Shown: positions 3,680 to 52,353 of the stretch, piece after piece
Layout of the letters: each line of letters begins with the position of its first letter
Numbering within the stretch: position 1 is the first letter of the stretch
DNA from: a phage
NCBI GenBank assembly: GCA_036253495.1
Contig: GCA_036253495.1_4125.1
DNA length: 64,000 bases
Reading direction: 5' to 3' (one strand)
Notes under the pieces: model-generated
What the model was told of the DNA's origin: nothing
Database searches by the model: none
The model's input: only the letters and a program-made list of their open reading frames with translations
Program-made: the position numbers and the translations under genes

Positions 3680-3685
3680 TGAGAA

Positions 3686-8013: not shown

Positions 8014-8042
8014 TATTTTATCAAAACAAAGGAGGGACACAT

Positions 8043-8294: not shown

Positions 8295-8298
8295 GTAC

Positions 8299-8327
8299 TT
8301 GACAGTACTGAAATATAGGAGTACAAT
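8299..8327 (+). promoter_or_regulatory. sigma70-like promoter
   Basis: TTGACA, 17 bp spacer, TACAAT; GGAGTACAATGTACTCC palindrome overlaps -10. Confidence 0.5.
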
Positions 8328-8367
8328 GTACTCCTACTTTAATTGAAAACCAAAAAGGAAAAACACA

Positions 8368-9504: not shown

Positions 9505-9505
9505 A

Positions 9506-10003: not shown

Positions 10004-10024
10004 TTTTTTCATTAGGAGAAGTAA

Positions 10025-10987: not shown

Positions 10988-10994
10988 AGAACAA

Positions 10995-11021
10995 GGGTTG
11001 ACTTAGGTCAGCCCTTTTTTT
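10995..11021 (+). terminator. Rho-independent terminator
   Basis: GGGTTGACTTAGGTCAGCCC hairpin followed by T7 run. Confidence 0.7.
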
Positions 11022-11545
11022 ATGGGACAAAATGGATGTTCATGATACAATGATATTGTACAATTCTGTTGGCATGGATGACATGAACCTGATCCACTCG
11101 AAAATGTAGAGGGCAGTTGAGCAGTCCAGCAGTGCGAAGTGCAGAAGAAACCCGTCAGATGTGGGCATATTATGAACCCCTCACGGCAATGCGGCACTAT
11201 AAAGAACCACGTTAGGATGGCTGGTGGTTCCTCGATAGACATATAAGGATAACACCTTACAAATTATCTAAGGGAGAGTTATCAAATTTTGTACAGGAAA
11301 GTTGCGTCCAAAATTTGAGTACTCACATTAAGTATTTGATTGCATAGATACTTAATGAAGATACACTATGTTTAAAAGTGTAGACCGTCATATGAAACTG
11401 AAGTAGAGAGAAACAGGATGACCCGCTTTCGTACTCATTAAGAGTAATCTTCAATGCAATAGCTCTGATACCATCAGCGTCAAATTCCCCTCCCAGCGGG
11501 GGGAAGAAAAATCCCTTCCTCAAATCCCGTCAATATTAAAAGTCC

Positions 11546-11574
11546 TTGACAGTTATTAATCATTCGCGTAGAAT
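11546..11574 (+). promoter_or_regulatory. sigma70-like promoter
   Basis: TTGACA, 17 bp spacer, TAGAAT. Confidence 0.5.
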
Positions 11575-11638
11575 ACGTAGTATTAGAAGCGAACAGACAT
11601 CTCGAAGAGATGGATGACTAACTATTAAGGAACATTCA

Positions 11639-11848
11639 ATGAATACTACAATCTTTTTAGTAGTTGCTCTTTCAATGCAATCCGGTGTACAAATTACCCC
11701 TATGAATTCATTAAACCAATGTTTTTCTGTACGTGATAGTACATACGAACAAGTAAACAAAAATTCTTGGATGACAGTTAGTGAAGAACAAATGTGGTGT
11801 TACAAAAGTGATATTAAAGCGAAATTTATTGTAGGACAAACTCAATGA
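11639..11848 (+). CDS. hypothetical small protein
   Basis: 69 aa ORF. Confidence 0.45.
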   Translation: MNTTIFLVVALSMQSGVQITPMNSLNQCFSVRDSTYEQVNKNSWMTVSEEQMWCYKSDIKAKFIVGQTQ

Positions 11849-12039
11849 TTTATCGAGTGAGGTTTGAAGTTTGTAAAATTGTTTTCAATAGCAAAGGTGA
11901 AGCCTCACTCGATGAAACTCTGCACATATATAATCTCCAATTTAGGGCAAAAACAGAAGCTGATGCATTAGTAAACATGTTTAATTTCAACCATAGGTGC
12001 GGGTATCATTTAGTAAGAGTTATAGAGGTTAAAAAGTAA
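11845..12039 (+). CDS. hypothetical small protein
   Basis: 64 aa, ATGA overlap. Confidence 0.45.
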   Translation: MIYRVRFEVCKIVFNSKGEASLDETLHIYNLQFRAKTEADALVNMFNFNHRCGYHLVRVIEVKK

Positions 12040-12069
12040 TCACCGAATGCAGTGAAGAGGAAATCTAAA

Positions 12070-12864
12070 ATGAGTACTATCGATGAATTGATTCGACGGA
12101 ATTCAAAATATTACCAACCATCAGAAATTGTGGATAATATTACTAAATCTGAGTTTGGACCTAATACTCGCAAACTCATTCATGTAATGTCTCGTGACGG
12201 CTTTAAATGTGATTGTTGTGGTGAATCCAATGTAGTATTCACTTTACATAAGCACAGTACTAAAGAACGTTATAAATTCAGACCTTATGTACTTAAAGGG
12301 AAACGTCTTGTACGCATGACGTTAGACCATAATGTACTGGACTGTCTCCAGGGTGGTAATGATAAAGAGAACATGACTGCACTGTGTGAGGATTGTAATG
12401 CCTTACGCCAGCATAAGTTCGCAGAGTACAGCGAGTTTAAGTACTGGTATCATAATGCAGACCGTTCAATTGAGCCTAATGTAAACTACTGCTTCATTGA
12501 GTACATCAAGAATGCAAAAGATACATACATTCTTAAATCCATGTCTCCGATTACAGTGTTTCCTGAGAATCTATTCAGTACTATGGAGCGTGATTTCAAG
12601 CGTGGTATCATCAATGCATTCAAGCACTTAGACAAAGGTATCAAGCACTTTGATGTTGAATGTTTAAATTCAGGTATGAATCATTTAGTACAAATTTACA
12701 TGAAATCGTTTATAGGTATTGACAGTGCACGACTACCAGTATATAATTACTTTATTGAAAGCGTAGAAGGTGAATCACTTCGTGATTATGGTGAAAGATT
12801 TAATAAGAAAGTTTTCACTGCAATAGCAAATGAGATTCATTACTATAAACCATATGTAATTTAA
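12070..12864 (+). CDS. HNH endonuclease (putative homing endonuclease)
   Basis: CDCCG ... LDHNVLDCLQGGNDKENMTALCEDCN HNH-type motif; ATG 12070 after GAGGA. Confidence 0.65.
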   Translation: MSTIDELIRRNSKYYQPSEIVDNITKSEFGPNTRKLIHVMSRDGFKCDCCGESNVVFTLHKHSTKERYKFRPYVLKGKRLVRMTLDHNVLDCLQGGNDKENMTALCEDCNALRQHKFAEYSEFKYWYHNADRSIEPNVNYCFIEYIKNAKDTYILKSMSPITVFPENLFSTMERDFKRGIINAFKHLDKGIKHFDVECLNSGMNHLVQIYMKSFIGIDSARLPVYNYFIESVEGESLRDYGERFNKKVFTAIANEIHYYKPYVI

Positions 12865-12878
12865 TTAGAGGAACTATC

Positions 12879-13046
12879 ATGCAAATCATTATCTTAATCG
12901 TTGGTATCGGTTTGGGCATCTATGGACATTCATGGGTAACTGAGAAGTTTCCTGACACCCGTCCAGATTACTGTACAACTAAAACTGAAAGTACTGAAAG
13001 TATTGGAACTAAGATCGATAAAGTAATCGAGGTGATTAAACAATGA
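12879..13046 (+). CDS. small membrane peptide
   Basis: 55 aa, hydrophobic N-terminus, GAGGAA RBS; hand-translated. Confidence 0.4.
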   Translation: MQIIILIVGIGLGIYGHSWVTEKFPDTRPDYCTTKTESTESIGTKIDKVIEVIKQ

Positions 13047-13134
13047 TGAAACTTAATATATTTCTGGTTGTATTCACTGTCGTTGTTATCGGTATTGGTG
13101 CACTGGCATATATCCAACCTTAAAGGAAAAATAA

Positions 13135-13335
13135 ATGTTTAAATCGAATACAAATGTTGGTAAGCAGGTTCAATTACTTGAAGACGTATCCACTATGAGT
13201 GGAACCTTCACTAAAGGTCACATCATGACTATTATTGCCGAAACATCCCGTGGCTGGGACTTGGAAGATGCTGATGGTAATCGCATCCTTGAGGCTGGCT
13301 TCTATGGTCATCGTGAATATAAAATCATTGATTAA
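13135..13335 (+). CDS. hypothetical small protein
   Basis: 66 aa ORF. Confidence 0.5.
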   Translation: MFKSNTNVGKQVQLLEDVSTMSGTFTKGHIMTIIAETSRGWDLEDADGNRILEAGFYGHREYKIID

Positions 13336-13433
13336 GGATGCAAACGTGACTTTAGAGATTATCGTTGGTATTGTTAGTTTTAGTCATCTGTGTTGGTTGG
13401 TTTGGGTATATGATGATTTTTAGTGATTAATAC

Positions 13434-13461
13434 TTGACAGAAGATATCAGTACTGTATAAT
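13434..13461 (+). promoter_or_regulatory. sigma70-like promoter
   Basis: TTGACA, 16 bp spacer, TATAAT with upstream CAGTACTG. Confidence 0.55.
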
Positions 13462-13506
13462 GTTTATATCAAACGAAATCCACTTTAACAAATGATAGGA
13501 AATATT

Positions 13507-13785
13507 ATGTCTTTTACCAAAGAAGAACGTGACCTTATTAAAAAAGCAATCTGGTTTTATGCTAATGAAGGGGAGTGCGATGAAGAAAAAGCACGTGAAC
13601 TGTGTAATATCCTTGAGCAGAAACAAGAACTGAAAGTGTATCGTATCCGTGTTTTGGATGAAGGGGATCGTATTGTCCTAGCTGAAACAAAAGAAGAAGC
13701 AGAACAAATCTTCACTGATAAAAACGAAAATCCACATTGGATGGAAGAAGTCTGTGAAGTAAAAAAAGGTACTTATATCGATTGA
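13507..13785 (+). CDS. hypothetical protein
   Basis: Track ORF from 13492; ATG 13507 chosen. Confidence 0.5.
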   Translation: MSFTKEERDLIKKAIWFYANEGECDEEKARELCNILEQKQELKVYRIRVLDEGDRIVLAETKEEAEQIFTDKNENPHWMEEVCEVKKGTYID

Positions 13786-13810
13786 CTGTACTGAATAATA
13801 GCAGTATAAT
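13782..13810 (+). promoter_or_regulatory. sigma70-like promoter
   Basis: TTGACT, 17 bp spacer, TATAAT. Confidence 0.55.
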
Positions 13811-13816
13811 GTTTAT

Positions 13817-13882
13817 ATCAAAGGGAATGCAGTGAAAGGAAAGACAGCATAATCGTACTCGTCACTGCGTTCCCGCCCTTTT
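13817..13882 (+). ncRNA. candidate short leader RNA or attenuator
   Basis: GGGAATGCAGTGA ... TCACTGCGTTCCC stem followed by GCCCTTTT, between promoter and the RBS of the 13904 gene. Confidence 0.3.
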
Positions 13883-13903
13883 AAATTAAATGAGGAATTA
13901 ACT

Positions 13904-14212
13904 ATGTTTCAAACTAACACTCAAGGTTTTGTAATCATCGATTTGAATCAAAACAGCGGTTATTGGATGAAACCTACTGACGCATGTATGCAGTTTGATT
14001 TTTTAGGTTACAGGATTAGTGTAAGTACTGGTGCTTCTGTACTGCGTGGTGGTTGTATCGTTGAACATCTGGTAACTGATCCAGAAGGTCGTGAGTATGA
14101 AATCGCAGGTTCAGTACAAGATGCCATTATGTTTGTATGTCAGCGTGAAATGAATGGTTCGAATTCAAATGCACTGACTCATGCTCTTTCTCAAGAAGTG
14201 GAGGTTCGTTAA
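13904..14212 (+). CDS. hypothetical protein
   Basis: 102 aa, GAGGAA RBS. Confidence 0.55.
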   Translation: MFQTNTQGFVIIDLNQNSGYWMKPTDACMQFDFLGYRISVSTGASVLRGGCIVEHLVTDPEGREYEIAGSVQDAIMFVCQREMNGSNSNALTHALSQEVEVR

Positions 14213-14457
14213 TGAAATATATTGTAGCAGTACTAATTGCTTTCCTACTCACTGCATGTGATGCTTCAACAAAAGAACGAACTGGTGAGTTTGTTTTACC
14301 AACTGAACTCAAAGAAGCAGGGTGTAAGATTTATCGTATGCAACAGGAAGGTGCAGGTGCAACTTTGTACACTGTTTACTGTCCTAATGCAAACACTACT
14401 ACGTCTTATATGAGTGGTAAAGTTCGCGTGGATACATCTGTGGTTCATGGAGAATAA
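14212..14457 (+). CDS. putative lipoprotein
   Basis: Signal peptide with LLTAC lipobox-like site. Confidence 0.55.
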   Translation: MKYIVAVLIAFLLTACDASTKERTGEFVLPTELKEAGCKIYRMQQEGAGATLYTVYCPNANTTTSYMSGKVRVDTSVVHGE

Positions 14458-14459
14458 CA

Positions 14460-14828
14460 ATGAGTCTTGATACTACTCGTTCGGCAAATATCTTGGAACG
14501 TTTGAATGATGAAGAATATCTTGCTAATGCAAAATATCAGCTTGAAAAACTCATTCGAAATGTAAAATATGTTGATATCACTACACAGCTTCCACTAGAT
14601 GAATATCACAAGTTAAACGAAGATATTGTATATCACCCAAATGAAATTTGGATTGAGTGGGAATCATGGACTCATTCGGTTCTCCGTATCGAAGGATATT
14701 GTGTGAAATATGAAAGTTCACCAGGTGATTTTACAAAAAAACTGTCGATATTGTGCACTGACACACATGAAATAGTTGAGGTGAATTTGAATCATATGAA
14801 GGGTTGCCGTTGGGGAGATGTTAAATGA
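14460..14828 (+). CDS. hypothetical protein
   Basis: 122 aa ORF. Confidence 0.55.
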   Translation: MSLDTTRSANILERLNDEEYLANAKYQLEKLIRNVKYVDITTQLPLDEYHKLNEDIVYHPNEIWIEWESWTHSVLRIEGYCVKYESSPGDFTKKLSILCTDTHEIVEVNLNHMKGCRWGDVK

Positions 14829-15100
14829 TTAAAAAACTCTTGACGGTGTTTGTTGTATTCTGTACAATGTTTCTTACAGCATGTAATGATGACGGCAGGT
14901 TCAGTGCAAAAGACTTAGTTCGTCAGGATTGTACATTCACAGGTAAGTCTTTTATTAACGAATATGAAATATGTACACAAGCAGGACGTATTTGTGGGGG
15001 TTGGGAAAAACGTCAGGAGCGTCTGTATGTATATGATTGTCCAGGACACCTCAACAAAGTACTAAGCACACACAAACTTGTTTATGATAAGGTTGAATAA
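14825..15100 (+). CDS. putative lipoprotein
   Basis: Signal peptide with FLTAC lipobox-like site. Confidence 0.55.
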   Translation: MIKKLLTVFVVFCTMFLTACNDDGRFSAKDLVRQDCTFTGKSFINEYEICTQAGRICGGWEKRQERLYVYDCPGHLNKVLSTHKLVYDKVE

Positions 15101-15309
15101 TGACTACCAATGAAATGATGCAGGTTATTTGGAATAAAGGTTGTGATATTAAAATCACTAGTACTGATGTTCGTGTATTCAAAACTGAATACATGGAATA
15201 CTTGGACCTTGATACTTATAATAATATTGTATCAATTGAACACAAAGGTGCAGTACTGGAAACAATTGACGTTGTTCTCAAGAAAGCAACGGATTTATTG
15301 GGAGCATAA
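15100..15309 (+). CDS. hypothetical small protein
   Basis: 69 aa ORF. Confidence 0.5.
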   Translation: MTTNEMMQVIWNKGCDIKITSTDVRVFKTEYMEYLDLDTYNNIVSIEHKGAVLETIDVVLKKATDLLGA

Positions 15310-15310
15310 G

Positions 15311-15457
15311 GTGAACAATAAAGAATGGGAAGAGTACCGCAAGAAGTGCCGAGAGTTTGATAAAGAACTCACTGGTACTGTGAACGCAGTAATGTGGGTA
15401 TCTGCAATAATTGCAGTACTGGGACTGTTTGCAGTTATCATTAATAAGTTTTTTTGA
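15311..15457 (+). CDS. small membrane peptide
   Basis: GTG after GGAG; C-terminal TM helix. Confidence 0.4.
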   Translation: MNNKEWEEYRKKCREFDKELTGTVNAVMWVSAIIAVLGLFAVIINKFF

Positions 15458-15466
15458 GGAATACAC

Positions 15467-15667
15467 ATGTTTACTTTATATCTAGCCGTAGTACTAACAA
15501 ATGGTGAAATCACACGTACATTCGGTGACGGTGTATATAAAACACCTGAGCAGTGTTATTCTGCGACACACTGGCCTCGTGATGCTGGTGAAGAAACTCG
15601 TACCGAATACAAATGTATGAAGGTCAAAGGTGACTTTGTTAACCTTAAGGTCATTGAGGTGAAGTAG
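15467..15667 (+). CDS. hypothetical small protein
   Basis: 66 aa ORF. Confidence 0.5.
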   Translation: MFTLYLAVVLTNGEITRTFGDGVYKTPEQCYSATHWPRDAGEETRTEYKCMKVKGDFVNLKVIEVK

Positions 15668-16173
15668 TGAATCTTAGTACTGATAAGTTTGTAAAGTTCA
15701 TAGAGTTTATCAACTTCAATGAGAGCTACAATGGTACGTACAATACTATGAATATTGTATCTGATAAAGTATTTGATAGTACAATGTTCTATTTGTATGA
15801 TACAAACGGTGATAAGCTGTGTGATGTTACATTCGGTATTGGTGATCTTTTTGAATCTGCGGTTTATCTATCTAAACCAACGGTGCGTGATACATATGAA
15901 ATTCACTTTCATAATAGACCGAATCACAAAAACATTGTAGAATATGATATACCATCATCACACGAACTGTTCATTGTAGATTACAGTACTGAAGAGGGTG
16001 TATTTCAAAGTTCATTGCTATACAACTTTGAACTACACGATCCTGATATTCCTAAAGTACTGGCAATTTCCAATAAGGTATGTGAATTGCCATATAACAT
16101 ATACATGTCAGTTCCTGGTAAAAGAGTAGGTAATTTCTGTAAAGCCTTTGACATACAAGCGGATGATAAATGA
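15667..16173 (+). CDS. hypothetical protein
   Basis: 168 aa ORF. Confidence 0.55.
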   Translation: MNLSTDKFVKFIEFINFNESYNGTYNTMNIVSDKVFDSTMFYLYDTNGDKLCDVTFGIGDLFESAVYLSKPTVRDTYEIHFHNRPNHKNIVEYDIPSSHELFIVDYSTEEGVFQSSLLYNFELHDPDIPKVLAISNKVCELPYNIYMSVPGKRVGNFCKAFDIQADDK

Positions 16174-16394
16174 ACAGATACGTGATTGAATACGTGGGTA
16201 TATCTGAATTTGATAACATTCGTGGCTATGAAAAGGTCATGAGTGAACGCACGATATATGTTAGGGGTCGCGATGAAGCCCATGTTCTCTCTTTACTGTT
16301 AAATGACCTGACAAAGTTCAATACAACAAAGACACAACGTTATATTGAAACAATTAAATCTATTAAACTTTTAGACGAGGATGATGAAGAATGA
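16170..16394 (+). CDS. hypothetical small protein
   Basis: 74 aa, ATGA overlap. Confidence 0.5.
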   Translation: MNRYVIEYVGISEFDNIRGYEKVMSERTIYVRGRDEAHVLSLLLNDLTKFNTTKTQRYIETIKSIKLLDEDDEE

Positions 16395-16603
16395 ATTTAT
16401 ATCTAGTAGAAGGTACAGTGCAGGTTTTCCGTTTTGATGGTGATCGTGGTATGCGTTTCTCACATGTTGAAGAATTTAAATTTGTCGTACATGCAGAAGG
16501 TGAGTACGAAGCAGAGATTAAAGTATCTGAATCCTTTGATAAGAAAGAAACAGTAGATGTACAGTATCAGCAACTACAATTTAAAGTGTGGCCTACGCTT
16601 TAA
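16391..16603 (+). CDS. hypothetical small protein
   Basis: 70 aa, ATGA overlap. Confidence 0.5.
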   Translation: MNLYLVEGTVQVFRFDGDRGMRFSHVEEFKFVVHAEGEYEAEIKVSESFDKKETVDVQYQQLQFKVWPTL

Positions 16604-16607
16604 AAAC

Positions 16608-16636
16608 TTGACACGCATGTAAAAAGCGAGTATTAT
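16608..16636 (+). promoter_or_regulatory. sigma70-like promoter
   Basis: TTGACA, 17 bp spacer, TATTAT. Confidence 0.5.
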
Positions 16637-16667
16637 ATCTGTATTATGAATTAACTGAGGAATACGT

Positions 16668-17333
16668 ATGCTCGCCAATTTAAGTTACATTATTAGTGAT
16701 GATATGGTACAAAGTCGTGGTATGTATCTTGAGAAAGTTCCATACGATAGCGATGGTATCAAAGGAACTTTATACGAAAGTCGTTTTGACAGAAAGCATC
16801 CATTCTGGGAAAAGGCTAATCTAACGGAAGAAGATAGTAATCGTTTATTTTGTGCTGTGCAGACGCCTACACCTGGTATATTAGCGGGTTATGGTATAGA
16901 TAAAGTCATTAACTTTATGACAGACTATGAAGTTATTAAAAGTCTGCAATATATTAATACGAACAATGGTGAGTTCTATAATTCTGATGATTTTCTTGCT
17001 ATGTGTAGTGCTTCATATGAGAGTGAATTATTGCCAAGTGGTAGACCATTCCCATTGTCAACACATTGTAATTCCCCTTACGGTGTAGCTGACAACTTAC
17101 AGCAGATCCTTAAGAAACATAAGAATGTTCTTACATCTGAAATGGAAGTTGTTATTGGATTTCATCCAGTGTACAAGGAAGATCAACCTGAACATGGTGG
17201 GTGGCGTTGGCATAAGCACGGCACATACATTGGTACTCATAAGAAAAAGCATGAGTACTTGTATGATGAAGAAGGTATTGATGTTGTTTATTGTTACGAA
17301 CTAATCCCAGTAAAGAAAAAGGAAACACTATAA
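16668..17333 (+). CDS. hypothetical protein
   Basis: 221 aa, GAGGAA RBS. Confidence 0.6.
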   Translation: MLANLSYIISDDMVQSRGMYLEKVPYDSDGIKGTLYESRFDRKHPFWEKANLTEEDSNRLFCAVQTPTPGILAGYGIDKVINFMTDYEVIKSLQYINTNNGEFYNSDDFLAMCSASYESELLPSGRPFPLSTHCNSPYGVADNLQQILKKHKNVLTSEMEVVIGFHPVYKEDQPEHGGWRWHKHGTYIGTHKKKHEYLYDEEGIDVVYCYELIPVKKKETL

Positions 17334-17575
17334 TGTTAATTTTATACGTTGTACTGATTTTATTAGTTAACTTTTCTCCAACTATTTTAACTTTAGTATG
17401 GGGTAAATTTTATGATGCTGTAAAAGTATTTCTCTTGAATACTGCATGGGTATTGGTAAGTCTGACTCTTTATTGGTCTACTGATTGGATGATGATTGTG
17501 AGTCATATACTACTATATATTTCATTCCTAATGTTGTTCCAAGAAAAAGAAGTACTTGACAAACTTGAAGGTTAG
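17333..17575 (+). CDS. small membrane protein
   Basis: TAATG overlap; two hydrophobic helices. Confidence 0.5.
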   Translation: MLILYVVLILLVNFSPTILTLVWGKFYDAVKVFLLNTAWVLVSLTLYWSTDWMMIVSHILLYISFLMLFQEKEVLDKLEG

Positions 17576-17584
17576 ACCTATAAT
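17556..17584 (+). promoter_or_regulatory. sigma70-like promoter
   Basis: TTGACA, 17 bp spacer, TATAAT. Confidence 0.55.
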
Positions 17585-17607
17585 ATCCTTCTACTAAGGG
17601 GGATATT

Positions 17608-17868
17608 ATGGCAGTAGGGTTTGGTTCACCAGATAACCACCAAGAAACGATACAAGCAACTATTGATAATGCTATTGACTTTGCTCGCTCAAATCTGTAT
17701 AGTGGTGAGTCTGAAGAGTACTGCATCGACTGTGACTGTGAGATACCAGAGAAGCGGAGGTTAGTACTGAAGGGTGTAAAACGATGTGTTCAGTGTCAAT
17801 CAAAGGTTGACAAGGTATATCAAGAGCGTTATAATAGACGTGGAAGTAAAGACAGCCAACTCCGTTAA
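17608..17868 (+). CDS. TraR/DksA-like C4 zinc-finger protein
   Basis: CIDCDCEIP ... RCVQC four-cysteine arrangement in an 86-aa protein. Confidence 0.5.
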   Translation: MAVGFGSPDNHQETIQATIDNAIDFARSNLYSGESEEYCIDCDCEIPEKRRLVLKGVKRCVQCQSKVDKVYQERYNRRGSKDSQLR

Positions 17869-17888
17869 ATTAATATGAGGAACTACTA

Positions 17889-18221
17889 ATGTTATCATTT
17901 ATTCTTTCTATCCCTTGTTTTGTTCTTCTTTTTGTATTACTTTTTGAAGCATTCCAGAAAGATGAAGAAGTTAAAAATGACCTACGTAAACTATTCAATC
18001 TGGATAGTCCAGTAGTTGGGATCTTTTATGTTTTAGTATGTGTGTATGCTGTTGTGTGGCTATTGGGCTTTTTATTACCACTATCTACTGTACTTGCATG
18101 GATTTCCGTTGTTGAAAATTTAGTAGCTATTGTATGGTTTATTCAATGTTTGTTTAGTGGTTTGGTTTCTGATTGGATTTTCTTACTTAAAGTGAAGTTT
18201 AAATCAAAATCTGATAAGTAA
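17889..18221 (+). CDS. small membrane protein
   Basis: 110 aa hydrophobic ORF. Confidence 0.55.
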   Translation: MLSFILSIPCFVLLFVLLFEAFQKDEEVKNDLRKLFNLDSPVVGIFYVLVCVYAVVWLLGFLLPLSTVLAWISVVENLVAIVWFIQCLFSGLVSDWIFLLKVKFKSKSDK

Positions 18222-18312
18222 TAACCAAGTACTCATATAAAATACAGAATAGTATTAAATACTTGTGTACTAGTTAAGTACGCAAGTATTTTTTTATTAT
18301 TTTGAGGTTAAT

Positions 18313-18678
18313 ATGGGAAAGCTTACAATTATAATAGCCATGATAATGGCACTTAATGTTATGCCAGTTGAAGCTAACGAGGACGTTGCGTGGTTCGATT
18401 GCATAGGAAATGATGGACAGTGGCATACGTTTTCCAGTGATCCATATAATGGTACTGATATACTAATAGATGGTGAAAATTATCGTTTTGTTAGTGAAAG
18501 TAAAATTGGCAACAAAAAGGTATCGACATTTAGAACTGATTCTGGTATAATTGCTAATGTCATACTGATAGTTGATCCTGAAAATAATACAGGGGATATA
18601 TATGTAGTGGTTTACCGTGATCATTCCAATAAAAGAAGTCTGGATCTTGATAAACTTCATTTACATTGTCAAATATAA
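18313..18678 (+). CDS. putative secreted protein
   Basis: Signal peptide-like N-terminus; paralog of 19064..19417. Confidence 0.55.
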   Translation: MGKLTIIIAMIMALNVMPVEANEDVAWFDCIGNDGQWHTFSSDPYNGTDILIDGENYRFVSESKIGNKKVSTFRTDSGIIANVILIVDPENNTGDIYVVVYRDHSNKRSLDLDKLHLHCQI

Positions 18679-18692
18679 TTTAAGGTAAATCT

Positions 18693-19067
18693 ATGTTCAA
18701 TAGTATCATTGGGTTCTCATTAGTACTTCCACAAATCATTTTTGGTATTTGTTTTGTAACTTTTATGATGGGGTCAATCTATGGTATATGGTATTACATT
18801 TTAAAACAATCAGATGGAATCATTTTAAAAATAACAATGCATTTTGATGTGGATTCACCAGCATGGAATTCATCTATTATTACCAATACATTGTATTTTA
18901 TGATGATCATTTTGGAACAATTGGGATTTGTATCTAATAGTAATGTTTCTATGACCGCAGGTATGGCAAGTATTTGTTGTTTGTGGTATATTGTTTATAA
19001 GATTGATGTGTTGTATAATATGTATCGTGAAATGGTATTGAACAGAGATATGCAGAGGAAAAAATGA
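18693..19067 (+). CDS. small membrane protein
   Basis: 124 aa hydrophobic ORF. Confidence 0.55.
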   Translation: MFNSIIGFSLVLPQIIFGICFVTFMMGSIYGIWYYILKQSDGIILKITMHFDVDSPAWNSSIITNTLYFMMIILEQLGFVSNSNVSMTAGMASICCLWYIVYKIDVLYNMYREMVLNRDMQRKK

Positions 19068-19417
19068 TGAAAGTTATATTATTTTTTATGTGTATTATTA
19101 TGTGTGGTGTCTCTTATGCTGCACCCTTAGCCGGATTGCTTTGTAAAGAGAATTCTGAACAACACATATTCCAAGGGGATTCAGATGACCTTGATATCAT
19201 TTACATCGATGGTACTGAATATACATACGTTAAAGACCATACTGTTGGTGATATCAGTTTCACTGAATATGCAAAAACAGGTGACACTGATTATAGAGCC
19301 TACCTTCAAGTGAATATGATAGAGGGTGAAGACGGAACACAAGAAGTCAAACTCGTACTTAAACGTATTGGAGATAAGGAGGCTGATTTTGGAGGTGAGT
19401 GTACATATGATGATTGA
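19064..19417 (+). CDS. putative secreted protein
   Basis: Signal peptide; C-terminal KLVLKRIGDKEADFGGECTYDD. Confidence 0.55.
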   Translation: MMKVILFFMCIIMCGVSYAAPLAGLLCKENSEQHIFQGDSDDLDIIYIDGTEYTYVKDHTVGDISFTEYAKTGDTDYRAYLQVNMIEGEDGTQEVKLVLKRIGDKEADFGGECTYDD

Positions 19418-19425
19418 TTAAAAAA

Positions 19426-19458
19426 GGTTGACTAACGTCAGCCTTTTTTGTTATACTG
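19426..19458 (+). terminator. terminator hairpin overlapping promoter -35
   Basis: GGTTGACTAACGTCAGCC hairpin, T-run, then TATACT. Confidence 0.6.
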
Positions 19459-19466
19459 ATCCCAAT

Positions 19467-19592
19467 ATGCTTGCATTTCTTCAAGTTGATGTATATGAAG
19501 AAAGTAATGGCGAACAGTATGTTAAACTTGTGATGATGCGTAAGGCAGCAAAACAGGCAACATTCGGTGGCTTGTGTAAATATGAGGACTAA
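19467..19592 (+). pseudogene. truncated paralog remnant of the 19064 secreted-protein family
   Basis: 41-aa ORF ending KLVMMRKAAKQATFGGLCKYED, resembling the C-terminus of 19064..19417. Confidence 0.35.
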
Positions 19593-19596
19593 ACAT

Positions 19597-19788
19597 ATGT
19601 TGATTTATCAATGTGATAACATTCGTGTTATACAGCATCCCTACTTACAAATCTTTGATGTGCAGCAGTATATGGAAGGTGATGACCCAAGAACCTATGG
19701 TCGTAAGTATGATTACTTCACTGTAAAGCAGTGTCGTAACATCAAAGAAGTACGACAATTAGTTCAAGAACTTCAAAATAAAGGTTGA
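19597..19788 (+). CDS. hypothetical small protein
   Basis: ATG 19597 after GAGGA; track ORF from 19567. Confidence 0.5.
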   Translation: MLIYQCDNIRVIQHPYLQIFDVQQYMEGDDPRTYGRKYDYFTVKQCRNIKEVRQLVQELQNKG

Positions 19789-19814
19789 CTTCGGTCAGCC
19801 TTTTTTGTTATAAT
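19783..19814 (+). terminator. terminator hairpin overlapping promoter -35
   Basis: GGTTGAC-TTCG-GTCAGCC, T-run, TATAAT. Confidence 0.7.
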
Positions 19815-19843
19815 CATTTCATCTACTACTGGGGATTTTAATT

Positions 19844-20284
19844 ATGTATGTATATCGTTTTGAACTTAAATTCAGTTATATTGAACCTAACTTAGATCCT
19901 GCAAAAACAGTAGGACCGTTCGCACGGTACTCTTCGCGATACAGTACTAAAAATGGATTTGAACGTTTGTGTATGACTACACCTTCGCAATTCCAACCTG
20001 AGCCAACTGAAGATGGGATCTATTCAATCAAACGTGGCTGGGCATTTGGATGCCAAAGTTTAAACGACCTGTTCAGATTCTTTACAATGGACTTAGGTAA
20101 ACTTCATCGTTCAGGATTTTCTGTTTTTGTGTATGAAGTTCCTGATAACCATGTAGACATTGGACATAACCAAGTGCAGTACTATTGTGGTAGTGCAAAA
20201 CTACTTCGTATTATGTCAGTAAAGGAAGCTAAAGAAGAATTTCGTGCTACAAGATTTAATAAGGAAGAGATGGCATATGGATAA
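19844..20284 (+). CDS. hypothetical protein
   Basis: 146 aa ORF. Confidence 0.55.
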   Translation: MYVYRFELKFSYIEPNLDPAKTVGPFARYSSRYSTKNGFERLCMTTPSQFQPEPTEDGIYSIKRGWAFGCQSLNDLFRFFTMDLGKLHRSGFSVFVYEVPDNHVDIGHNQVQYYCGSAKLLRIMSVKEAKEEFRATRFNKEEMAYG

Positions 20285-20633
20285 AACATCAACACGATTT
20301 GCAAAGTTCTTGAGTTATGAGATACCACAAGATCCGTATTTCGACCAACGTGACGATGAAGATTACATAAAGTTAACTCGTGAACTACGAAATAAGTTCC
20401 AACAGATTTTAAGTTCATACACTAATACACATCCACATTTAAAGTACTTCATTAAGGCAGATATAGATTCAGATGATTCTGAACTATCATTCCTTGAATA
20501 CACAGTTGAGTGTGTTGGGTATGTACCTGATAATAGTGTAATTAATCACAACAAAATAAAGTTCGACTTGTACGTTATTTGTGTTATAATGAACTTAATT
20601 GCACAAATGAACAACTATTCAATAGGGGATTAA
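20277..20633 (+). CDS. hypothetical protein
   Basis: ATG 20277 overlapping upstream stop; track ORF from 20244. Confidence 0.5.
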   Translation: MDKTSTRFAKFLSYEIPQDPYFDQRDDEDYIKLTRELRNKFQQILSSYTNTHPHLKYFIKADIDSDDSELSFLEYTVECVGYVPDNSVINHNKIKFDLYVICVIMNLIAQMNNYSIGD

Positions 20634-20897
20634 ATGAAACTGAAATTGAACTATCATGGTTTTCGTCTGCGTGATGATGTGGAGTTCCTTCGTCGCACAC
20701 CAGGTGCTGAGTTGTTTTTAACTGAAATGGGTGTCCCATTTAAAGTCGAGCACATTGGTGACAATGACTGCCTGGTATATGATAATCAACCGGATATCAA
20801 CGTTCCGTGGTATTCTGAACATATGTACATTGATATGGCGGCTCGCTACAACTGTACGTTTGAAATTACATCTAAAGGTATTGCTATTCAATTCTAA
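20634..20897 (+). CDS. hypothetical protein
   Basis: 87 aa ORF. Confidence 0.5.
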   Translation: MKLKLNYHGFRLRDDVEFLRRTPGAELFLTEMGVPFKVEHIGDNDCLVYDNQPDINVPWYSEHMYIDMAARYNCTFEITSKGIAIQF

Positions 20898-20918
20898 TAG
20901 TCTGATGGACACGAGTAA

Positions 20919-21143
20919 ATGAAATACATGCTGGTGGCATTAATGTTTGTGAGCACAATAGTACAAGCCAGAATCAAGTACTTTGTGAAGTGTACAAACG
21001 TTAGCGGTGGCTACACAGAGACATATCAGGGTAAGTCGGTTAAGATGGCAATACACAATGATAGAGGAACAGTGATTTTCCTTGTGAATGATATAATCAT
21101 TTTGTACAAACCAGATGTACCATGTGAAGTAAAAAGATATTAA
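20919..21143 (+). CDS. putative secreted small protein
   Basis: Signal-like N-terminus. Confidence 0.5.
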   Translation: MKYMLVALMFVSTIVQARIKYFVKCTNVSGGYTETYQGKSVKMAIHNDRGTVIFLVNDIIILYKPDVPCEVKRY

Positions 21144-21148
21144 ACTAC

Positions 21149-21180
21149 GGGGTTGGCATAAGTCAGCCCTTTTGTATAAT
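21149..21180 (+). terminator. terminator hairpin overlapping promoter
   Basis: GGTTGGCATAAGTCAGCC hairpin, T-run, TATAAT. Confidence 0.5.
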
Positions 21181-21188
21181 GGTGACTT

Positions 21189-21767
21189 ATGAACCGTAAA
21201 GGTAAGTTTAAAGTATCAAAGAAGAATAAAAGTGGAAGGTTCAATGATATATGCTTAGGTTTTATCAAAGCACACAATAAACTTTCTGCCCTGAGTAGAA
21301 AGATAGTATCTAACAAGATTGATATTAGATATATAAGTACTAACAATAGTACAGGGAAAGATGCACATCCAACTGAAAATATTATTTCAGTATCCTTCGT
21401 ATACGATGGTCTGGACATTACGATAGATGATTACAGACGATACGGTACTGGGTTTATACGTATCTATTGCAGAGATGCATCTGATAAGCCGGAACGTATT
21501 CGTATTATCGGTACATTGAGTGCTGGTATATTTGAGTGGGAGATTGTTCAACTTAAAACTATCGATGAGTACACCACAAGTTCTAATATTATTGAGTTGA
21601 ATTGCAATGTGAAAGACCTCCCAAACTTGAGCGAAGAAGAATATTTTCAAGAAAGCTTGCTAACGCCAAATTTGGATGATATAATTAAACAATATAAGAC
21701 GATGGTGTACTTCTTCAAATGTATCAAACCTAAGACTTGTTTGATGAATATTGTCCGTGATCTATAA
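21189..21767 (+). CDS. hypothetical protein; LSEEEYFQ motif family
   Basis: 192 aa; motif shared with 71..538 and 1088..1552. Confidence 0.55.
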   Translation: MNRKGKFKVSKKNKSGRFNDICLGFIKAHNKLSALSRKIVSNKIDIRYISTNNSTGKDAHPTENIISVSFVYDGLDITIDDYRRYGTGFIRIYCRDASDKPERIRIIGTLSAGIFEWEIVQLKTIDEYTTSSNIIELNCNVKDLPNLSEEEYFQESLLTPNLDDIIKQYKTMVYFFKCIKPKTCLMNIVRDL

Positions 21768-50360: not shown

Positions 50361-50990
50361 TTAAACACATATAGCTAGGGGAAGCTCCGTAGTGCAAGCA
50401 TTATACAGGCTTTAACATATGTTGCATATGTTAAAATTCAGCCTGGACAAATGCGATCACTAGGATTCTCCCCAGGCTAAACCCCGTAATCATAAGTAAT
50501 CATATATAAACATTTAAGTAATCATTTATAATCATTGTAGTGAACAGTATTGAGTACTAGAGTGCAGGAATGATTCAGAATGATTCAGTACTGATATCCC
50601 ACTAAGTAGGCAAATGAAGTCGCCCAAAATTTACATAATTTTACAGTACTGAACAATTGCAAAACAAATCATTTCCAATCAAAAGTAATCACGGAATGAC
50701 CAGTACTGAAAACTCCCAATCACCTATTCAAAAAAGTTCAATTTACCCTTTGTCAAAAATCCCGAATACCCATTGGGGAAAATTCCGAATACCCCTTGAG
50801 GCTCCAGCAAAAAGTTGGTTAGTACTCCATCGTAAATCTGGATCGTAAAAATTTTGGAGTACCTATGAAATAAAAGTTGGATCTTCGAAAGTTGAAATTT
50901 ACATTGGGACATATAGGATTAGTGGGATATAATGAGTTTTGAAGAGATACAGAGTATACGATTTCAGTACTGAATAATGGAAGAAATCTA

Positions 50991-51018
50991 TTGACATTAT
51001 GATTCAGTACTGTATAAT
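50991..51018 (+). promoter_or_regulatory. orphan sigma70-like promoter in the ORF-free region
   Basis: TTGACA, 16 bp spacer, extended -10 TGTATAAT; no ORF follows; T-run near 51131-51141. Confidence 0.45.
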
Positions 51019-51150
51019 GTTCTACATAGAGTGATGAATTGCCGCAAACAATTCAGAGCCTTAGCCCTCCTGTCGTGAGACAGTACAGAAGAGATTGAAT
51101 CCTCCTATGCAGTGGTTCATCTTTGACAACCTCTTTTTTCGTAATATAAA

Positions 51151-51218
51151 CAGTACTGTTATTAACAGAATGGTAGCAGTACTGTTATTAACAGAATGGT
51201 AGCAGTACTGATATTAAT
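51151..51218. repeat. 26-bp tandem direct repeat, about 2.5 copies
   Basis: CAGTACTGTTATTAACAGAATGGTAG twice, then a partial third copy. Confidence 0.8.
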
Positions 51219-51454
51219 CTAATATAATGTTACCATGCAATGTGGTGAATTTCCCTTAACAGTATTCAGTACTACATGATAGTCTTCATCCTCCTAGGGT
51301 AACATAGTGAGGGCTATGATGGCAGTACTGAATACTCCCTTCTTAAAGATAGATCTATGGTATAGTACTGACGGATTTTGGGCGTAGTAACCCTGGGTGG
51401 ATTTTGGACGTAGAGATGCCTAGCCCTCCAGAAGTCTGGAAGTAAAGATGGCTA

Positions 51455-51570
51455 TCCCTCTAGACGGCTGGATGGCTGGATGGCTAGATTTCTAGATGGC
51501 TGTACTGCTAGACGTTTGGACGGCTAAACGGCTAGATGGTTAAACGTCTGGATGTATAGACGGTTAAATC
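51455..51570. repeat. iteron-like array of short degenerate direct repeats
   Basis: GGCTGGAT / GGCTAGAT / GACGGCTAAAC / AGACGGTTAAA units repeated about ten times, followed by an AT-rich T-run. Confidence 0.7.
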
Positions 51571-51731
51571 AAAATTTTTATTTTGTTTTTTCCAATAGTT
51601 CCCCTACCGCGTGGGGATGGTTTCCCCGCAGTATCTGGAGTTAGATTTTTCTGAATCTGGAAACATTATCCCAGTTTTAGCGGGGTATGTCAACCGCCTG
51701 GATGAATATTTTTAAAAAATAATCTAGTACT

Positions 51732-51806
51732 GAATTTTGGGCGTAACTATGCACCCGGTGGGCTAGAGTCTTTCTCGACTTGATGAAATAATTATAGCAG
51801 TACTGA
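51732..51806 (+). repeat. conserved noncoding element family A, copy 1
   Basis: ATTTTGGGCGTA..GCACCCGGTGGGCTAGAG..TGATG.AATAATTATAGCAGTACTG. Confidence 0.6.
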
Positions 51807-51906
51807 ATTATAAAAGCAATAGCCTAAGTGTAAAAAGTTTTAATTAATTTGCTTGCCATCCTGGGGCGTACTATGGTACTATGATTCAGTACTGAGAAAG
51901 TACTTT

Positions 51907-51933
51907 GACCCGCTAGGGTGCGGGAGTGTATCC
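51907..51933 (+). repeat. conserved noncoding element family B, copy 1
   Basis: CCCGCTAGGGTGCGGGAGTGTATCC. Confidence 0.5.
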
Positions 51934-51946
51934 TTTTTAAATTTAC

Positions 51947-52015
51947 TGAATTTTGGGCGTAGTTCCGCACCCCCTGGGGTATCCGCTTTCTCGCGTCTAT
52001 GTAGTAATTATACGC
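51947..52015 (+). repeat. conserved noncoding element family A, copy 2
   Basis: ATTTTGGGCGTAGTTCCGCACCCCCTGGGGTATCC..TCTATGTAGTAATTATACGC. Confidence 0.6.
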
Positions 52016-52264
52016 TTTTTTAGTACTGAGTCAATAGCTAAAAACAAAATAATTGAAAATAATTTAACGCGTTTAAACGGCCCGTAAAGCCCTGGATTGT
52101 TGGGAGTGGTGCAAATGTATAGCTTAGGTGTATTAATGCGTTAGAATGCGTCTGAGGCCGTTTTAAGGGTATAGTACTGAATAATTGTACTCACTGGATT
52201 GATTCAGTACTGAATGATAGTACTCCTATATAGAAAGAAAACTATTTTAAAAGTATTTGCAGAA

Positions 52265-52327
52265 AGTACTTGCATACTATGTTTAAGGGCGTATAATGTT
52301 TTACATCGAGACGGGGGAAACGCTCCT
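52265..52327 (+). promoter_or_regulatory. promoter with 5' hairpin
   Basis: AGTACTTGCAT -35, TATAAT, then GACGGGGGAAACGCTCC. Confidence 0.6.
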
Positions 52328-52353
52328 AACTCACTTTAATAGGAATTAAAACG

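Follow-up and report, generated by a model that had tools for sequence, protein, structure and literature searches.

A 2-kb stretch (positions 50361-52353) of the phage DNA analysed here (the window, 64,000 nucleotides) carries repeats and promoters and apparently no genes, which raises the question of what it does in the phage genome. A preliminary description made from the letters alone had favoured a replication origin, with a packaging site or the genome terminus as alternatives. The source is an Asteriusvirus, a jumbo phage of the 121Q/PBECO4/G17 type with a 350-kb genome that infects E. coli. Every repeat and promoter listed in that description was found at or near the position given, as was the compositional shift, with a G+C content of about 0.32-0.37 on the left and about 0.36-0.40 on the right. 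The stretch is indeed free of genes: its largest ORFs encode 56-63 amino acids, and these small ORFs are not conserved across relatives, in which indels of 7, 8, 16, 24 and 26 nt disrupt them. A tRNA scan of the whole window gave none. Counterparts of the region with 80-93% identity were present in 42 phage records, and the region was compared base by base in an alignment of 12 Asteriusvirus genomes. There are 58 copies of the palindromic motif CAGTACTG in the window, where 1.0 would be expected, and 12 of them lie between 50586 and 52212. Given this conservation and the excess of CAGTACTG, the region is far from chance.

The left edge of a direct terminal repeat (DTR) of about 21 kb falls inside the region, by homology with three Asteriusvirus termini. 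The DTRs of G17, vB_Ec-M-J and fEgEco12, independently determined (n=3), start at the base homologous to 50605; the ends came from read coverage in G17 and from PhageTerm and restriction digests in fEgEco12, and the DTR of vB_Ec-M-J is annotated as 1..21525. The junction, with GATATCCCACTA before the cut and AGTAGGCA after it, is invariant in all 12 genomes and is the same as the DTR start of these three phages. The physical left end of the virion DNA, and with it the start of a DTR leader, thus placed by homology, very probably lies between positions 50604 and 50605 (CCCACTA followed by AGTAGGCA; boundary feature 50600..50609, plus strand); the ends themselves were determined in relatives. 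The region accordingly splits into 244 nt of unique genome and a 1,749-nt untranslated leader inside the DTR, and the compositional boundary becomes the border between the unique genome and the early-gene block of the DTR. Of the interpretations first offered, the terminus alternative was upheld and the replication origin was not. In the records of 366-384 kb, the region or the array described below is present at two places each. That the genus has this DTR, and where it lies, was known before, since the boundary sequence is the same as that of the published termini.

The 1.75-kb leader is under purifying selection, and its architecture is common to four jumbo-phage genera, Asteriusvirus, Eneladusvirus, Mimasvirus and Alcyoneusvirus. 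Among the further relatives, the ends of CBB were defined by doubled read depth and PFGE and those of Muenster by PhageTerm. The sequence C-R-C-T-A followed by the cut was found at the left boundaries in four genera and, on the opposite strand, at the right boundaries in three, which is the expectation if staggered nicks duplicate the repeat. A GAAGTC box (50616..50621, plus strand; nt 12-17 from the DNA end) stands at a fixed distance of 11 nt inside the end in four genera, with identical spacing in the window, fEgEco12, Serratia phage BF, Pectobacterium phage CBB, XbC2 and Klebsiella phage Muenster (AAAGTC in Muenster). The reverse complement of the GAAGTCGC box just beyond the right DTR boundary was found in Asteriusvirus only and is absent from CBB and Muenster, so it was dropped as a conserved feature.

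The 244 nt at the end of the unique genome (50361..50604) are non-coding and include a hairpin at 50411-50435, whose pairs AACATAT/ATATGTT, AACAATT/AATTGTT and AACATCT/AGATGTT represent compensatory changes. A 60-nt block (50429-50489) is invariant or nearly so in the 12 Asteriusviruses; the stem AGCCTGG/CCAGGCT (50440-50446/50472-50478) and A+T-rich repeats of the AATCAT type (50486-50536) come next. Two copies of GAATGATTCA and one of CAGTACTG (50568-50593) immediately precede the cut, and in four genera the last 100 nt or so before the cut contain a cluster of AGTACT motifs. SlmA, whose site GTGAGTACTCAC has an AGTACT core, was rejected as a candidate, as two matches with up to 2 mismatches were found in the window against 2.4 expected.

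Inside the leader, repeats of the type AAAAT(C/T)YSGA(A/T)TACC (AAAAATCCCGAATACCC, GAAAATTCCGAATACCCC, AAATCTGGATCG and AAAAATTTTGGAGTACC) occupy 50744..50866 on the plus strand. The previously noticed CCGAATACCC is present twice, within a 23-nt repeat at 50744-50798 that is limited to the window phage and phage A4. Promoter P1 (50991..51018, plus strand; TTGACA-16-TATAAT) is a 12/12 sigma-70-type match that is invariant in the 12 genomes; it had been called an orphan promoter, and it proved to be a perfect consensus without a conserved ORF downstream. A copy of CAGTACTG abuts its -10 element, and strong promoters 270-300 nt from the end are also found in BF, CBB and Muenster. The putative leader transcribed from P1 (51036..51140, plus strand), with limited covariation, contains a hairpin GAATTG/CAATTC (51036-51054; GGAAC/GTTCC in JNE01), an invariant CTGTC-GTGA-GACAG (51070-51083), CCTCC motifs (51066, 51101) and a non-conserved T-run (51134-51140). 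The 26-bp tandem repeat, described earlier as about 2.5 copies at 51151-51218, comprises 2.6 copies of the unit CAGTACTGTTATTAACAGAATGGTAG at 51151..51217 (plus strand; 97% matches by TRF). Ancestrally there were two CAGTACTG motifs at a spacing of 26 bp, and among the 12 aligned relatives the extra copy is confined to the window phage. Next, an extended inverted repeat, AGTATTCAGTACT...AGTACTGAATACT, encloses a CCTCC-containing stem (51262..51336, plus strand; alifold E = -36.8, z = -7.9) and is without covariation because the sequence is invariant.

The short direct repeats, about ten of which had been seen at 51455-51570, form an array of 13 units, each exactly 8 bp long and all in a single register (51462-51565, plus strand; TRF periods 8/16/24). 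The boxes read, in order, AGACGGCT GGATGGCT GGATGGCT AGATTTCT AGATGGCT GTACTGCT AGACGTTT GGACGGCT AAACGGCT AGATGGTT AAACGTCT GGATGTAT AGACGGTT, and three more in-register boxes at 51414, 51430 and 51446 extend the array as a whole to 51414..51565. Its length differs among relatives by 8 or 24 nt. The array was scored with the published half-metbox matrix for the methionine repressor MetJ, a site being at least two adjacent 8-bp boxes, each with at least one quarter of the consensus bit score and a total no lower than that of the consensus (12.58 bits). Twelve of the 13 boxes passed, giving 93 bits in total in two runs of 36.5 and 56.6 bits. No other run in the 64 kb qualified, and shuffled sequence reached at most 19 bits; as a positive control, the E. 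coli operators metJ-metB and metF scored 31.2 and 24.9 bits. The scoring showed that the array fits the MetJ operator matrix and the obligatory 8-bp spacing. Because the array is tandemly repeated, the independent evidence amounts to the fit of one consensus unit (chance about 1-2% over 8 phases) and the 8-bp period. No Fur or LexA sites were found in 50361-52353.

In E. coli, met operators consist of tandem 8-bp metboxes bound co-operatively by MetJ with SAM (PMC3228920). The phage array has the same 8-bp unit, the same strict tandem register and the same base preference (A/G, G/A, A, C/T ... C, T). It differs in comprising 13-16 boxes instead of 2-5, in having no methionine-gene promoter, in adjoining a genome end, and in box position 6, which is mostly G; the matrix prefers T there, and G occurs in about 10% of natural half-boxes. 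The array stands outside the met regulon: it belongs to a non-coding part of the phage DNA, with about 90 nt or more between it and the closest promoter-like sites, and it overlaps no promoter of a methionine or SAM gene. It may nevertheless work like a MetJ operator without being a member of that regulon. Array-like sequence was found in 79 phage records and is located in or next to the terminal repeats in all of those with known ends. The hosts named in 78 of the 79 belong to orders that possess MetJ (Enterobacterales, Vibrionales and Aeromonadales); the exception is the Mimasvirus XbC2, labelled with the host Xanthomonas, whose order lacks MetJ. This host-range argument is weak, as the array lineages are few (about 3-4 independent). 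We consider the chances that host MetJ binds the array to be evenly balanced; the true ligand could instead be the small terminase or a ribbon-helix-helix protein of the phage.

The array is directly followed by an A+T-rich tract, as the preliminary description had reported (51566..51592; 27 nt, about 80% A+T), and by a conserved box TTCCAATAGTTCCCCTACCGCG with a hairpin (GCGTGGGG...CCCCGC) at 51594..51630 on the plus strand. The sequence CCCCT(A/T)CCGCG is found about 32 nt past the array in all Rak2-like genera examined, Muenster included, and the hairpin arms after it vary by genus (TGGGG/CCCCG, CTAGT/ACTAG, CTGG/CCAG). The dispersed conserved elements reported earlier are repeat families of 15-69 nt, exemplified by 51728-51796 and 51944-52012 (75% identity). 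These two paralogous 69-nt elements are about 70% identical to sequences of Klebsiella Muenster, RaK2 and K64-1, and BF and CBB contain pieces homologous to 51728-52012. A TATAAT-type promoter match precedes each element on the minus strand (51834 to 51807 and 52034 to 52007), and a promoter-like site (51853-51882, plus strand) and a hairpin with a T-run (51915-51934) lie between them. After the block AATGCGTTAGAATGCGTCTGAGGCCGTTTTAAGG (52135..52186, plus strand), the first early promoter (52269..52296, plus strand; AAAGTAC-TTGCAT-16-TATAAT) serves the first early gene (52354-52716); its region is repeat D3, shared with 52705-52768. Promoter matches of at least 10/12 between 52 and 64 kb number 26 on the plus strand versus 7 on the minus strand. 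The leader is followed by a series of small early genes, every one with a host-type promoter of its own. Pfam and PHROG searches of ten DTR ORFs left the function of all of them unknown and detected no homologues of T5 A1/A2 and no initiator.

The closest parallel is T5 'Repeat Region 3', the injection stop signal (iss) of the left terminal repeat (Davison, bioRxiv 10.1101/866236; GenBank AY587007 9194-10409), which spans the repeat boundary, with about 945 nt inside the repeat and 270 outside, and carries host DnaA boxes. Both are untranslated, repeat-dense, conserved regions across the boundary of a long terminal repeat (here 1,749 nt inside and 244 outside), and both have binding sites for host proteins, predicted ones in the case of the jumbo-phage array. 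However, the modules are ordered differently with respect to the cut, since the T5 region occupies the distal (right) end of the repeat and the present one the end from which early-gene transcription proceeds. The present region also lacks the paired DnaA boxes by which the T5 region is defined: no consensus DnaA boxes, and hence no pairs in inverted repeats of the IRD'/IRC' kind with a 52-bp spacer, were found in the region, and the only relaxed matches are two copies of TTATTAACA inside the window-specific 26-bp repeat. T5 also has Fur-like repeats in place of the MetJ-like ones, and Fur-box arrays occur at the corresponding position in both Klebsiella phage Muenster and T5. LexA-type and DnaA-type boxes were found in T5-like phages, BF and CBB.

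Within the same family, Vibrio and Aeromonas Demerecviridae share the 8-bp array (E down to 2e-11 in a database-wide search), and there it adjoins the termini, upstream of the boundary in these phages and downstream of it in Rak2-like phages. In AhSzw-1 the array is followed by a CCCCTCCTGCG box similar to the one here; the T5 counterpart of this post-array box is CCCTGCGC, annotated as the 7.9% nick, to which CCCCTACCGCG (51601-51611) corresponds in the window. The AATGCGTTAGAATGCGTCTGAGGCCGTTTTAAGG block matches T5 9267-9316, the start of Repeat Region 3, with 79% identity over 53 nt (E = 7e-5 in a small local search; weak alone), and the fEgEco12 block matches T5 with 91% over 32 nt. Judged by eye, the repeats at 50744-50866 look similar to those called DRD in T5 (TGTGCAAATCCGACA), which lie across the repeat boundary of that phage.

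The left end of T7-like genomes consists of the terminal repeat, short-repeat arrays, strong promoters for host RNA polymerase and then the first gene. The same order of DNA end, short repeat arrays, strong sigma-70 promoters and early genes transcribed away from the end is seen in the present leader; the difference is that the T7 repeat is about 160 bp long with another short-repeat unit, compared with a 21-kb repeat and a 1.75-kb leader here. In the T7-like phages phiKT, PGT2, KPV811 and NNA-G4, the 8-bp array itself lies in or beside the terminal repeats.

We regard as probable the overall reading in which the unique genome meets the DTR of about 21 kb in this region, with its untranslated leader and an array resembling a MetJ operator. 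One competing explanation is a pure packaging signal, in which the array and the other repeats would be sites for the small terminase or another phage protein, not for MetJ, and would place the nuclease responsible for the cut 860 bp away. Repeated sites position a nuclease in P1 pac, SPP1 pacL/R and lambda cosB. The cut site does lie within the region, arrays accompany termini in three phage families, and the distance from array to end is roughly kept (640-810 nt in BF, CBB and XbC2; 860-960 nt here). However, the three families have unrelated packaging enzymes and share one 8-bp unit, which points to a common host ligand. In addition, Muenster retains the remaining leader and the cut motif with its array swapped for Fur-box repeats, and the array changes sides of the boundary between T5-like and Rak2-like phages. 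We therefore consider a pure packaging signal unlikely.

A T5-type injection stop, in which the DTR would enter first, transfer would pause at repeats loaded with host proteins, and early DTR products would release the remainder, appears improbable to the same degree. The topology is like that of T5, with untranslated repeats across the boundary that extend 244 nt into unique DNA versus 270 in T5, the DTR is full of small genes with host-type promoters, and the array, the CCCCTNCNGCG box and the weak block match may represent modules in common with the iss of the T5 family. Against it, the region lacks DnaA-box pairs, and homologues of A1/A2 are missing from the 11.6 kb of the DTR that the window covers, as judged from ten ORFs. 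Even in T5, the role of host proteins in the stop is itself a hypothesis only, and the function of iss is still debated.

A non-coding RNA locus, in which the orphan promoters would produce small regulatory RNAs and the conserved hairpins would be RNA structures, is somewhat less probable still. It would account for a perfect, invariant promoter without an ORF, for a few hairpins with compensatory or G-U-compatible changes, and for four CCTCC motifs on the plus strand with no GGAGG. However, no Rfam family was matched; a scan of 49800-53000 (E <= 1) returned one match only, a chance miRNA-like hairpin. Sliding RNAalifold on both strands of the 12-genome alignment gave top structures that mostly represent pairing between copies of the palindromic CAGTACTG, with little covariation. 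Since these pairings dominate and invariance leaves little room for covariation, the folding cannot establish RNAs. The T-run after P1 is not conserved, and an RNA locus would leave the terminus and the array unexplained.

The replication origin is very unlikely, whether the array is taken as iterons for an initiator beside a melting A+T-rich tract or the P1 transcript as a primer that forms an R-loop upstream of an unwinding element, in the manner of T4 oriF/oriG and the T7 primary origin: a conserved region, a 27-nt A+T-rich tract after a tandem array, a strong orphan promoter upstream of it and a local minimum of cumulative GC skew at 49-51 kb would suit it, but the units are contiguous, unphased 8-bp boxes that fit a repressor matrix, not helically phased 17-22-bp iterons, and the region contains no consensus DnaA boxes (TTWTNCACA) and no IHF sites. 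The skew minimum coincides with a change of gene strand and the DTR border and is thus uninformative as an origin marker. No initiator, helicase or primase was detected among ten flanking ORFs (Pfam, PHROG), and the ORFs upstream of the region encode unannotated peptides of about 60 amino acids. The array is also found in the iss region of the T5 family, whose origins are reported to lie near the genome centre, and in T7-like phages, where it is within or beside the short terminal repeats; Muenster has Fur boxes instead of it.

For the terminal-repeat junction with its MetJ-type array, the following course of events is proposed. The terminase complex would nick opposite strands, in staggered fashion, at both boundaries of a single repeat in the concatemer, and strand-displacement synthesis would then duplicate the repeat; the AGTACT clusters and AAATC-type repeats flanking the cut are the likely recognition elements. 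SAM-bound host MetJ would coat the array co-operatively on incoming and replicating phage DNA. The most likely consequence would be sequestration of MetJ by two arrays per genome, multiplied by replication, with derepression of host methionine and SAM synthesis. One incoming genome is too little to titrate the repressor, so titration would set in only after replication. A second possibility is a protein roadblock that would pause DNA entry or insulate transcription, as proposed for the T5 injection stop. Any particular downstream consequence of MetJ binding is doubtful.

Placing the end between 50604 and 50605 explains the compositional boundary and fixes the orientation and annotation of the genome; as such it is ordinary, the terminal repeat of the genus having been published. 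In the accessible literature on Rak2-like termini, the coverage of which is limited, the leader, the cut-site motif, the array and a link to T5 or MetJ are all undescribed, and so is the leader anatomy with CRCTA on opposite strands and GAAGTC at 11 nt. The cut motif and the GAAGTC box provide a concrete, testable model for the generation of 20-kb repeats. Beyond this genus, we tentatively suggest, at somewhat less than an even chance, that virulent phages of three unrelated families, all with terminal repeats (Rak2-like jumbo myoviruses, T5-like Demerecviridae and some T7-like Autographiviridae) carry interchangeable arrays of host-repressor operators beside their DNA ends, mostly of the MetJ type and of the Fur type in Klebsiella phage Muenster and T5, so that the end region would be a repressor-loading device. 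If so, the arrays would act either as a decoy, with the methionine/SAM, iron and SOS/dNTP pathways of the host derepressed while phage DNA builds up, or as a nucleoprotein brake or anchor controlling DNA entry. If MetJ does bind, this would be a case in which a phage exploits arrayed host operator sites in cis, and a shared explanation would become available for the repeat regions at the ends of T5- and T7-type genomes, which have long been a puzzle.

A megablast search with the ORF-free stretch at 50361-52353 retrieved 42 phage records, of which 34 cover at least 80% of it at 80-93% identity. All 42 belong to jumbo phages of the Asteriusvirus type that infect E. coli or Salmonella (121Q, PBECO4, G17, A4, and others), and the region is therefore a conserved non-coding part of a virulent myovirus genome of 350 kb. 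A 12-genome alignment of the region gave a mean column identity of 79% with long invariant runs; this is about the conservation of the first early gene, which indicates that the region is under selection. Its largest ORFs (56-63 aa) are broken by indels among the relatives. All features listed in the preliminary description were recovered from the sequence. The presence of two copies in records of approximately 366-384 kb was the first hint of a location in a long terminal repeat. In UE-S1 (ON568341.1; PMC13070987), the homologue of the region lies at 117.6-119.7 kb, indicating that the true genome ends did not set the orientation of this record.

A direct terminal repeat (DTR) has already been published for the genus Asteriusvirus. 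The ends of fEgEco12 were determined with PhageTerm (20,993-bp DTR) and confirmed by restriction digests, a terminal redundancy of approximately 20 kb was published for G17 from read coverage, and the vB_Ec-M-J record is annotated 'Direct Terminal Repeats 1..21525'. The sequence AGTAGGCAGAGGAAGTCTGCC forms the start of these three records, or their end after reverse complementing, and its internal copy is preceded by ...CAGTACTGATAT(G/C)(C/T)CACTA. The window reads ...TTCAGTACTGATATCCCACTA^AGTAGGCAAATGAAGTCGCC (^, boundary), a junction invariant among the 12 aligned genomes, which places the DTR boundary between positions 50604 and 50605. The region accordingly comprises the last 244 nt of unique DNA and the first 1,749 nt of the DTR, and by homology with the determined ends of relatives it very probably represents the DTR boundary with a conserved untranslated leader. 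It is thus the genome terminus, offered as an alternative in the preliminary description, that was borne out, and the compositional boundary described there, across which G+C was measured to rise by approximately 4 points to the right, is the border of the unique genome with the DTR. In the searchable literature, neither the anatomy of the leader nor the cut motif nor a host-operator reading was found to be described. On the unique side, a 60-nt block at 50429-50489 (115-175 nt ahead of the cut) shows little or no variation among all 12 Asteriusviruses, and a covarying hairpin stands just before it; BF and CBB carry a different long hairpin at a similar place (GTTTGATTCC...GGATTCAAAC). The block could be a packaging recognition element or a 3' structure of the upstream operon.

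The ends were compared in four genera, namely Asteriusvirus, Eneladusvirus (BF), Mimasvirus (CBB and XbC2), and Alcyoneusvirus (Klebsiella phage Muenster), with termini determined by others using PhageTerm or read depth. A (G/A)AAGTC box was located exactly 11 nt inside the start of every DTR compared. The left cut is preceded by CCACTA in the window, fEgEco12, and Muenster and by CCGCTA in BF and CBB, and at their right boundaries fEgEco12, CBB, and Muenster have ...CT^TAGC, or (C/T)GCTA^AG on the complementary strand, so that both DTR boundaries carry 5'-C-R-C-T-A and then the cut on opposite strands. Staggered nicking followed by strand-displacement synthesis is the model proposed for T7. 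From the symmetry of the boundaries, we infer a similar origin of the DTR copies, in which a concatemer with a single repeat would receive staggered nicks on opposite strands at its two edges, and strand-displacement synthesis would then produce the observed arrangement. The XbC2 record (OP292654.1, 1-860) has the same end (TATCTGTTCCTGAAGTCC...). The jumbo phages of these genera are called Rak2-like here.

In each of the four genera, the last 100 nt ahead of the left cut contain a cluster of AGTACT motifs. Throughout the 64-kb window, AGTACT occurs 250 times, where base composition predicts approximately 22, with the highest density at 46-54 kb and 58-64 kb, and the 8-bp palindrome CAGTACTG occurs 58 times versus 1.0 expected, both within and between genes. 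At the early promoters, CAGTACTG fills the spacer beside the -10 element (TTGCAATTAGTTTTCAGTACTGTATAAT); the -35 element is directly adjoined by AAAGTAC. The palindrome was rejected as a SlmA site.

The leader is a conserved mosaic of 1.3-1.8 kb, whose elements are arranged in one order shared by all four genera: the DNA end with the GAAGTC box; AAAAT-C/T-YSGA-type repeats; at a distance of 270-400 nt from the DNA end, a strong sigma-70 promoter; the tandem array; the box TTCCATTAGYTCCCCT(A/T)CCGCG with a hairpin, approximately 32 nt after the array, whose arms differ between genera; a 69-nt element in one or two copies; and AAAGTAC-TTGAC/TTGCA early promoters. At 50991-51018, the promoter previously listed without a downstream ORF matches TTGACA-16-TATAAT at every position and does not vary among the 12 genomes. 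The 26-bp tandem unit was recovered in 2.6 copies, of which the extra copy is unique to this phage in the 12-genome alignment, and the twice-occurring CCGAATACCC belongs to a 23-nt repeat restricted to this phage and phage A4. No Rfam family matched in the leader, and the compensatory changes seen in a few hairpins of the 12-genome alignment do not establish an RNA structure.

The first early gene begins at 52354. To the right of the region, 26 promoter matches (at least 10 of 12 positions) were detected on the plus strand versus 7 on the minus strand; the 26 stand upstream of small genes of unknown function, and the DTR gene block is a typical early block driven by host RNA polymerase. The first early promoter and 5' leader (52254-52349) are approximately 78% identical to non-coding sequence in 141-146-kb phage records (Escherichia phages JLBYU50 and ZYD, and records labelled Campylobacter phage A150 and C3), which suggests a promoter/leader cassette common to different phage groups. 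Near-identical terminator hairpins (AGCCCAC...GTGGGCT with a T-run) recur in the early region at 56887-56908, 57617-57638, and 63257-63282. To the left lie a 1007-aa gene (33408-36431), eight or nine tandem paralogous minus-strand genes of 369-472 aa (36562-46463), annotated in relatives as 'DNA condensation protein', RCC1/kelch-like, and followed by a terminator after each gene in G17, and a run of plus-strand ORFs of approximately 60 aa (46500-50360), hypothetical proteins in relatives. This last run has a GC skew of -0.15 to -0.21 and an AT skew up to +0.24, whereas other plus-strand genes of the window have a positive GC skew.

The short direct repeats, taken for iterons in the preliminary description, were resolved into 13 units of exactly 8 bp in a single register. 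They occupy 51462-51565, and an A+T-rich tract of 27 nt comes next. When the frame is moved by four bases, the units become AGACGGCT GGATGGCT ... AAACGTCT GGATGTAT AGACGGTT, and the target of the host methionine repressor MetJ consists of tandem 8-bp metboxes with the consensus AGACGTCT (PMC3228920). Scored with the half-metbox matrix and the site criteria published by Augustus and Spicer (PMC3228920), the array has 12 boxes, out of 13, above the single-box threshold. They form two runs (5 boxes, 36.5 bits; 7 boxes, 56.6 bits), the only qualifying MetJ sites in the 64-kb window, with three more in-register boxes just upstream of the array. Shuffled sequences (n=20) reached at most 19 bits with 2-3 boxes, and the best two runs in 7 kb of control E. 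coli DNA were the metJ-metB intergenic region (4 boxes, 31.2 bits) and a site just upstream of metF (4 boxes, 24.9 bits). The boxes of the array average 7.2 bits; a random 8-mer has a probability of 1.5% of passing the threshold and of 0.1% of reaching 7.5 bits. Since the boxes are mutual copies, what counts as independent evidence is how well the unit fits, together with the 8-bp spacing. Base use by column (A8/G5, G10, A13, C7/T6, G11, G9/T4, C9, T13) agrees with the matrix and the alternatives that it tolerates; the exception is position 6, which has G in place of the preferred T. The repeats fit a MetJ operator, and the array is probably, at a confidence close to even, a MetJ-binding super-operator. 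Its possible roles are those of a decoy for the repressor, of a brake on DNA entry or an insulator, or of an accessory in packaging. A replication origin, as first proposed from the repeats and the A+T-rich tract, is not supported, given that contiguous 8-bp units are unlike iterons, the region has no consensus DnaA or IHF sites, no initiator gene was found nearby among ten flanking ORFs, the turn in GC skew falls together with changes of gene strand and with the border of the DTR, and the same array is present in phages where origins are not expected at that place. An R-loop-type origin driven by the orphan promoter is very unlikely.

A database-wide search with the array alone matched 79 records. 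Rak2-like phages carry it 650-930 nt from the record start wherever the record starts at the DTR. It is also carried by 16 Vibrio and 5 Aeromonas records, those inspected or named being Demerecviridae (T5 family), and by the Autographiviridae PGT2 (nt 44-114, present twice), KPV811 (approximately 70 nt short of where the record ends), NNA-G4 (within the right terminal repeat as annotated), and phiKT (in a non-coding stretch between late lysis genes and early genes). The arrays of the T5-like phages Pontus and AhSzw-1 (15-16 boxes, 112-139 bits with the same matrix) lie in the untranslated region corresponding to T5 'Repeat Region 3', a candidate injection stop signal that spans the repeat boundary, extends 270 bp into unique DNA, and contains host DnaA boxes (Davison, bioRxiv 10.1101/866236). 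The box CCCCTACCGCG (51601-51611), which follows the array in the window, is similar to CCCCTCCTGCG, which stands behind the array of Aeromonas phage AhSzw-1 (3641-3651), and to T5 CCCTGCGC (AY587007, 9661-9668), annotated as the major single-strand nick at 7.9%. The hosts belong to orders possessing MetJ in all cases but one, Mimasvirus XbC2, which is labelled a Xanthomonas phage; Xanthomonadales are reported to lack MetJ (PMC3228920). Since XbC2 (OP292654.1, 1-860) bears a metbox-like array of 8 + 4 + 2 boxes, either its host label or the MetJ reading is in doubt.

At the array position, Muenster carries repeats such as GATAATGATTCTCATTTAC instead of metboxes. Scanning with the 19-bp Fur box consensus revealed 10 sites matching at 13-16 of 19 positions in Muenster (1.1 expected from shuffles, maximum 5) and 5 in T5 (0.5 expected); the Muenster array and, in T5, direct repeat C and palindromes E-I match the Fur box in this range. 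One LexA-type box (CTGT-N8-ACAG) each was found in T5 palindrome D, where it is near-perfect (TACTGTATAAATATACAGTA), Pontus, AhSzw-1, BF, and CBB. The segments concerned are 9330-9349 and 9470-9640 in T5 (AY587007) and 770-910, 1073-1097, and 1300-1324 in Muenster. The consensus scan detected neither Fur-type nor LexA-type sites in the region of the window. In summary, the array travels with genome ends in unrelated phages, and the matrix and consensus matches suggest that these end regions may collect operators of host repressors.
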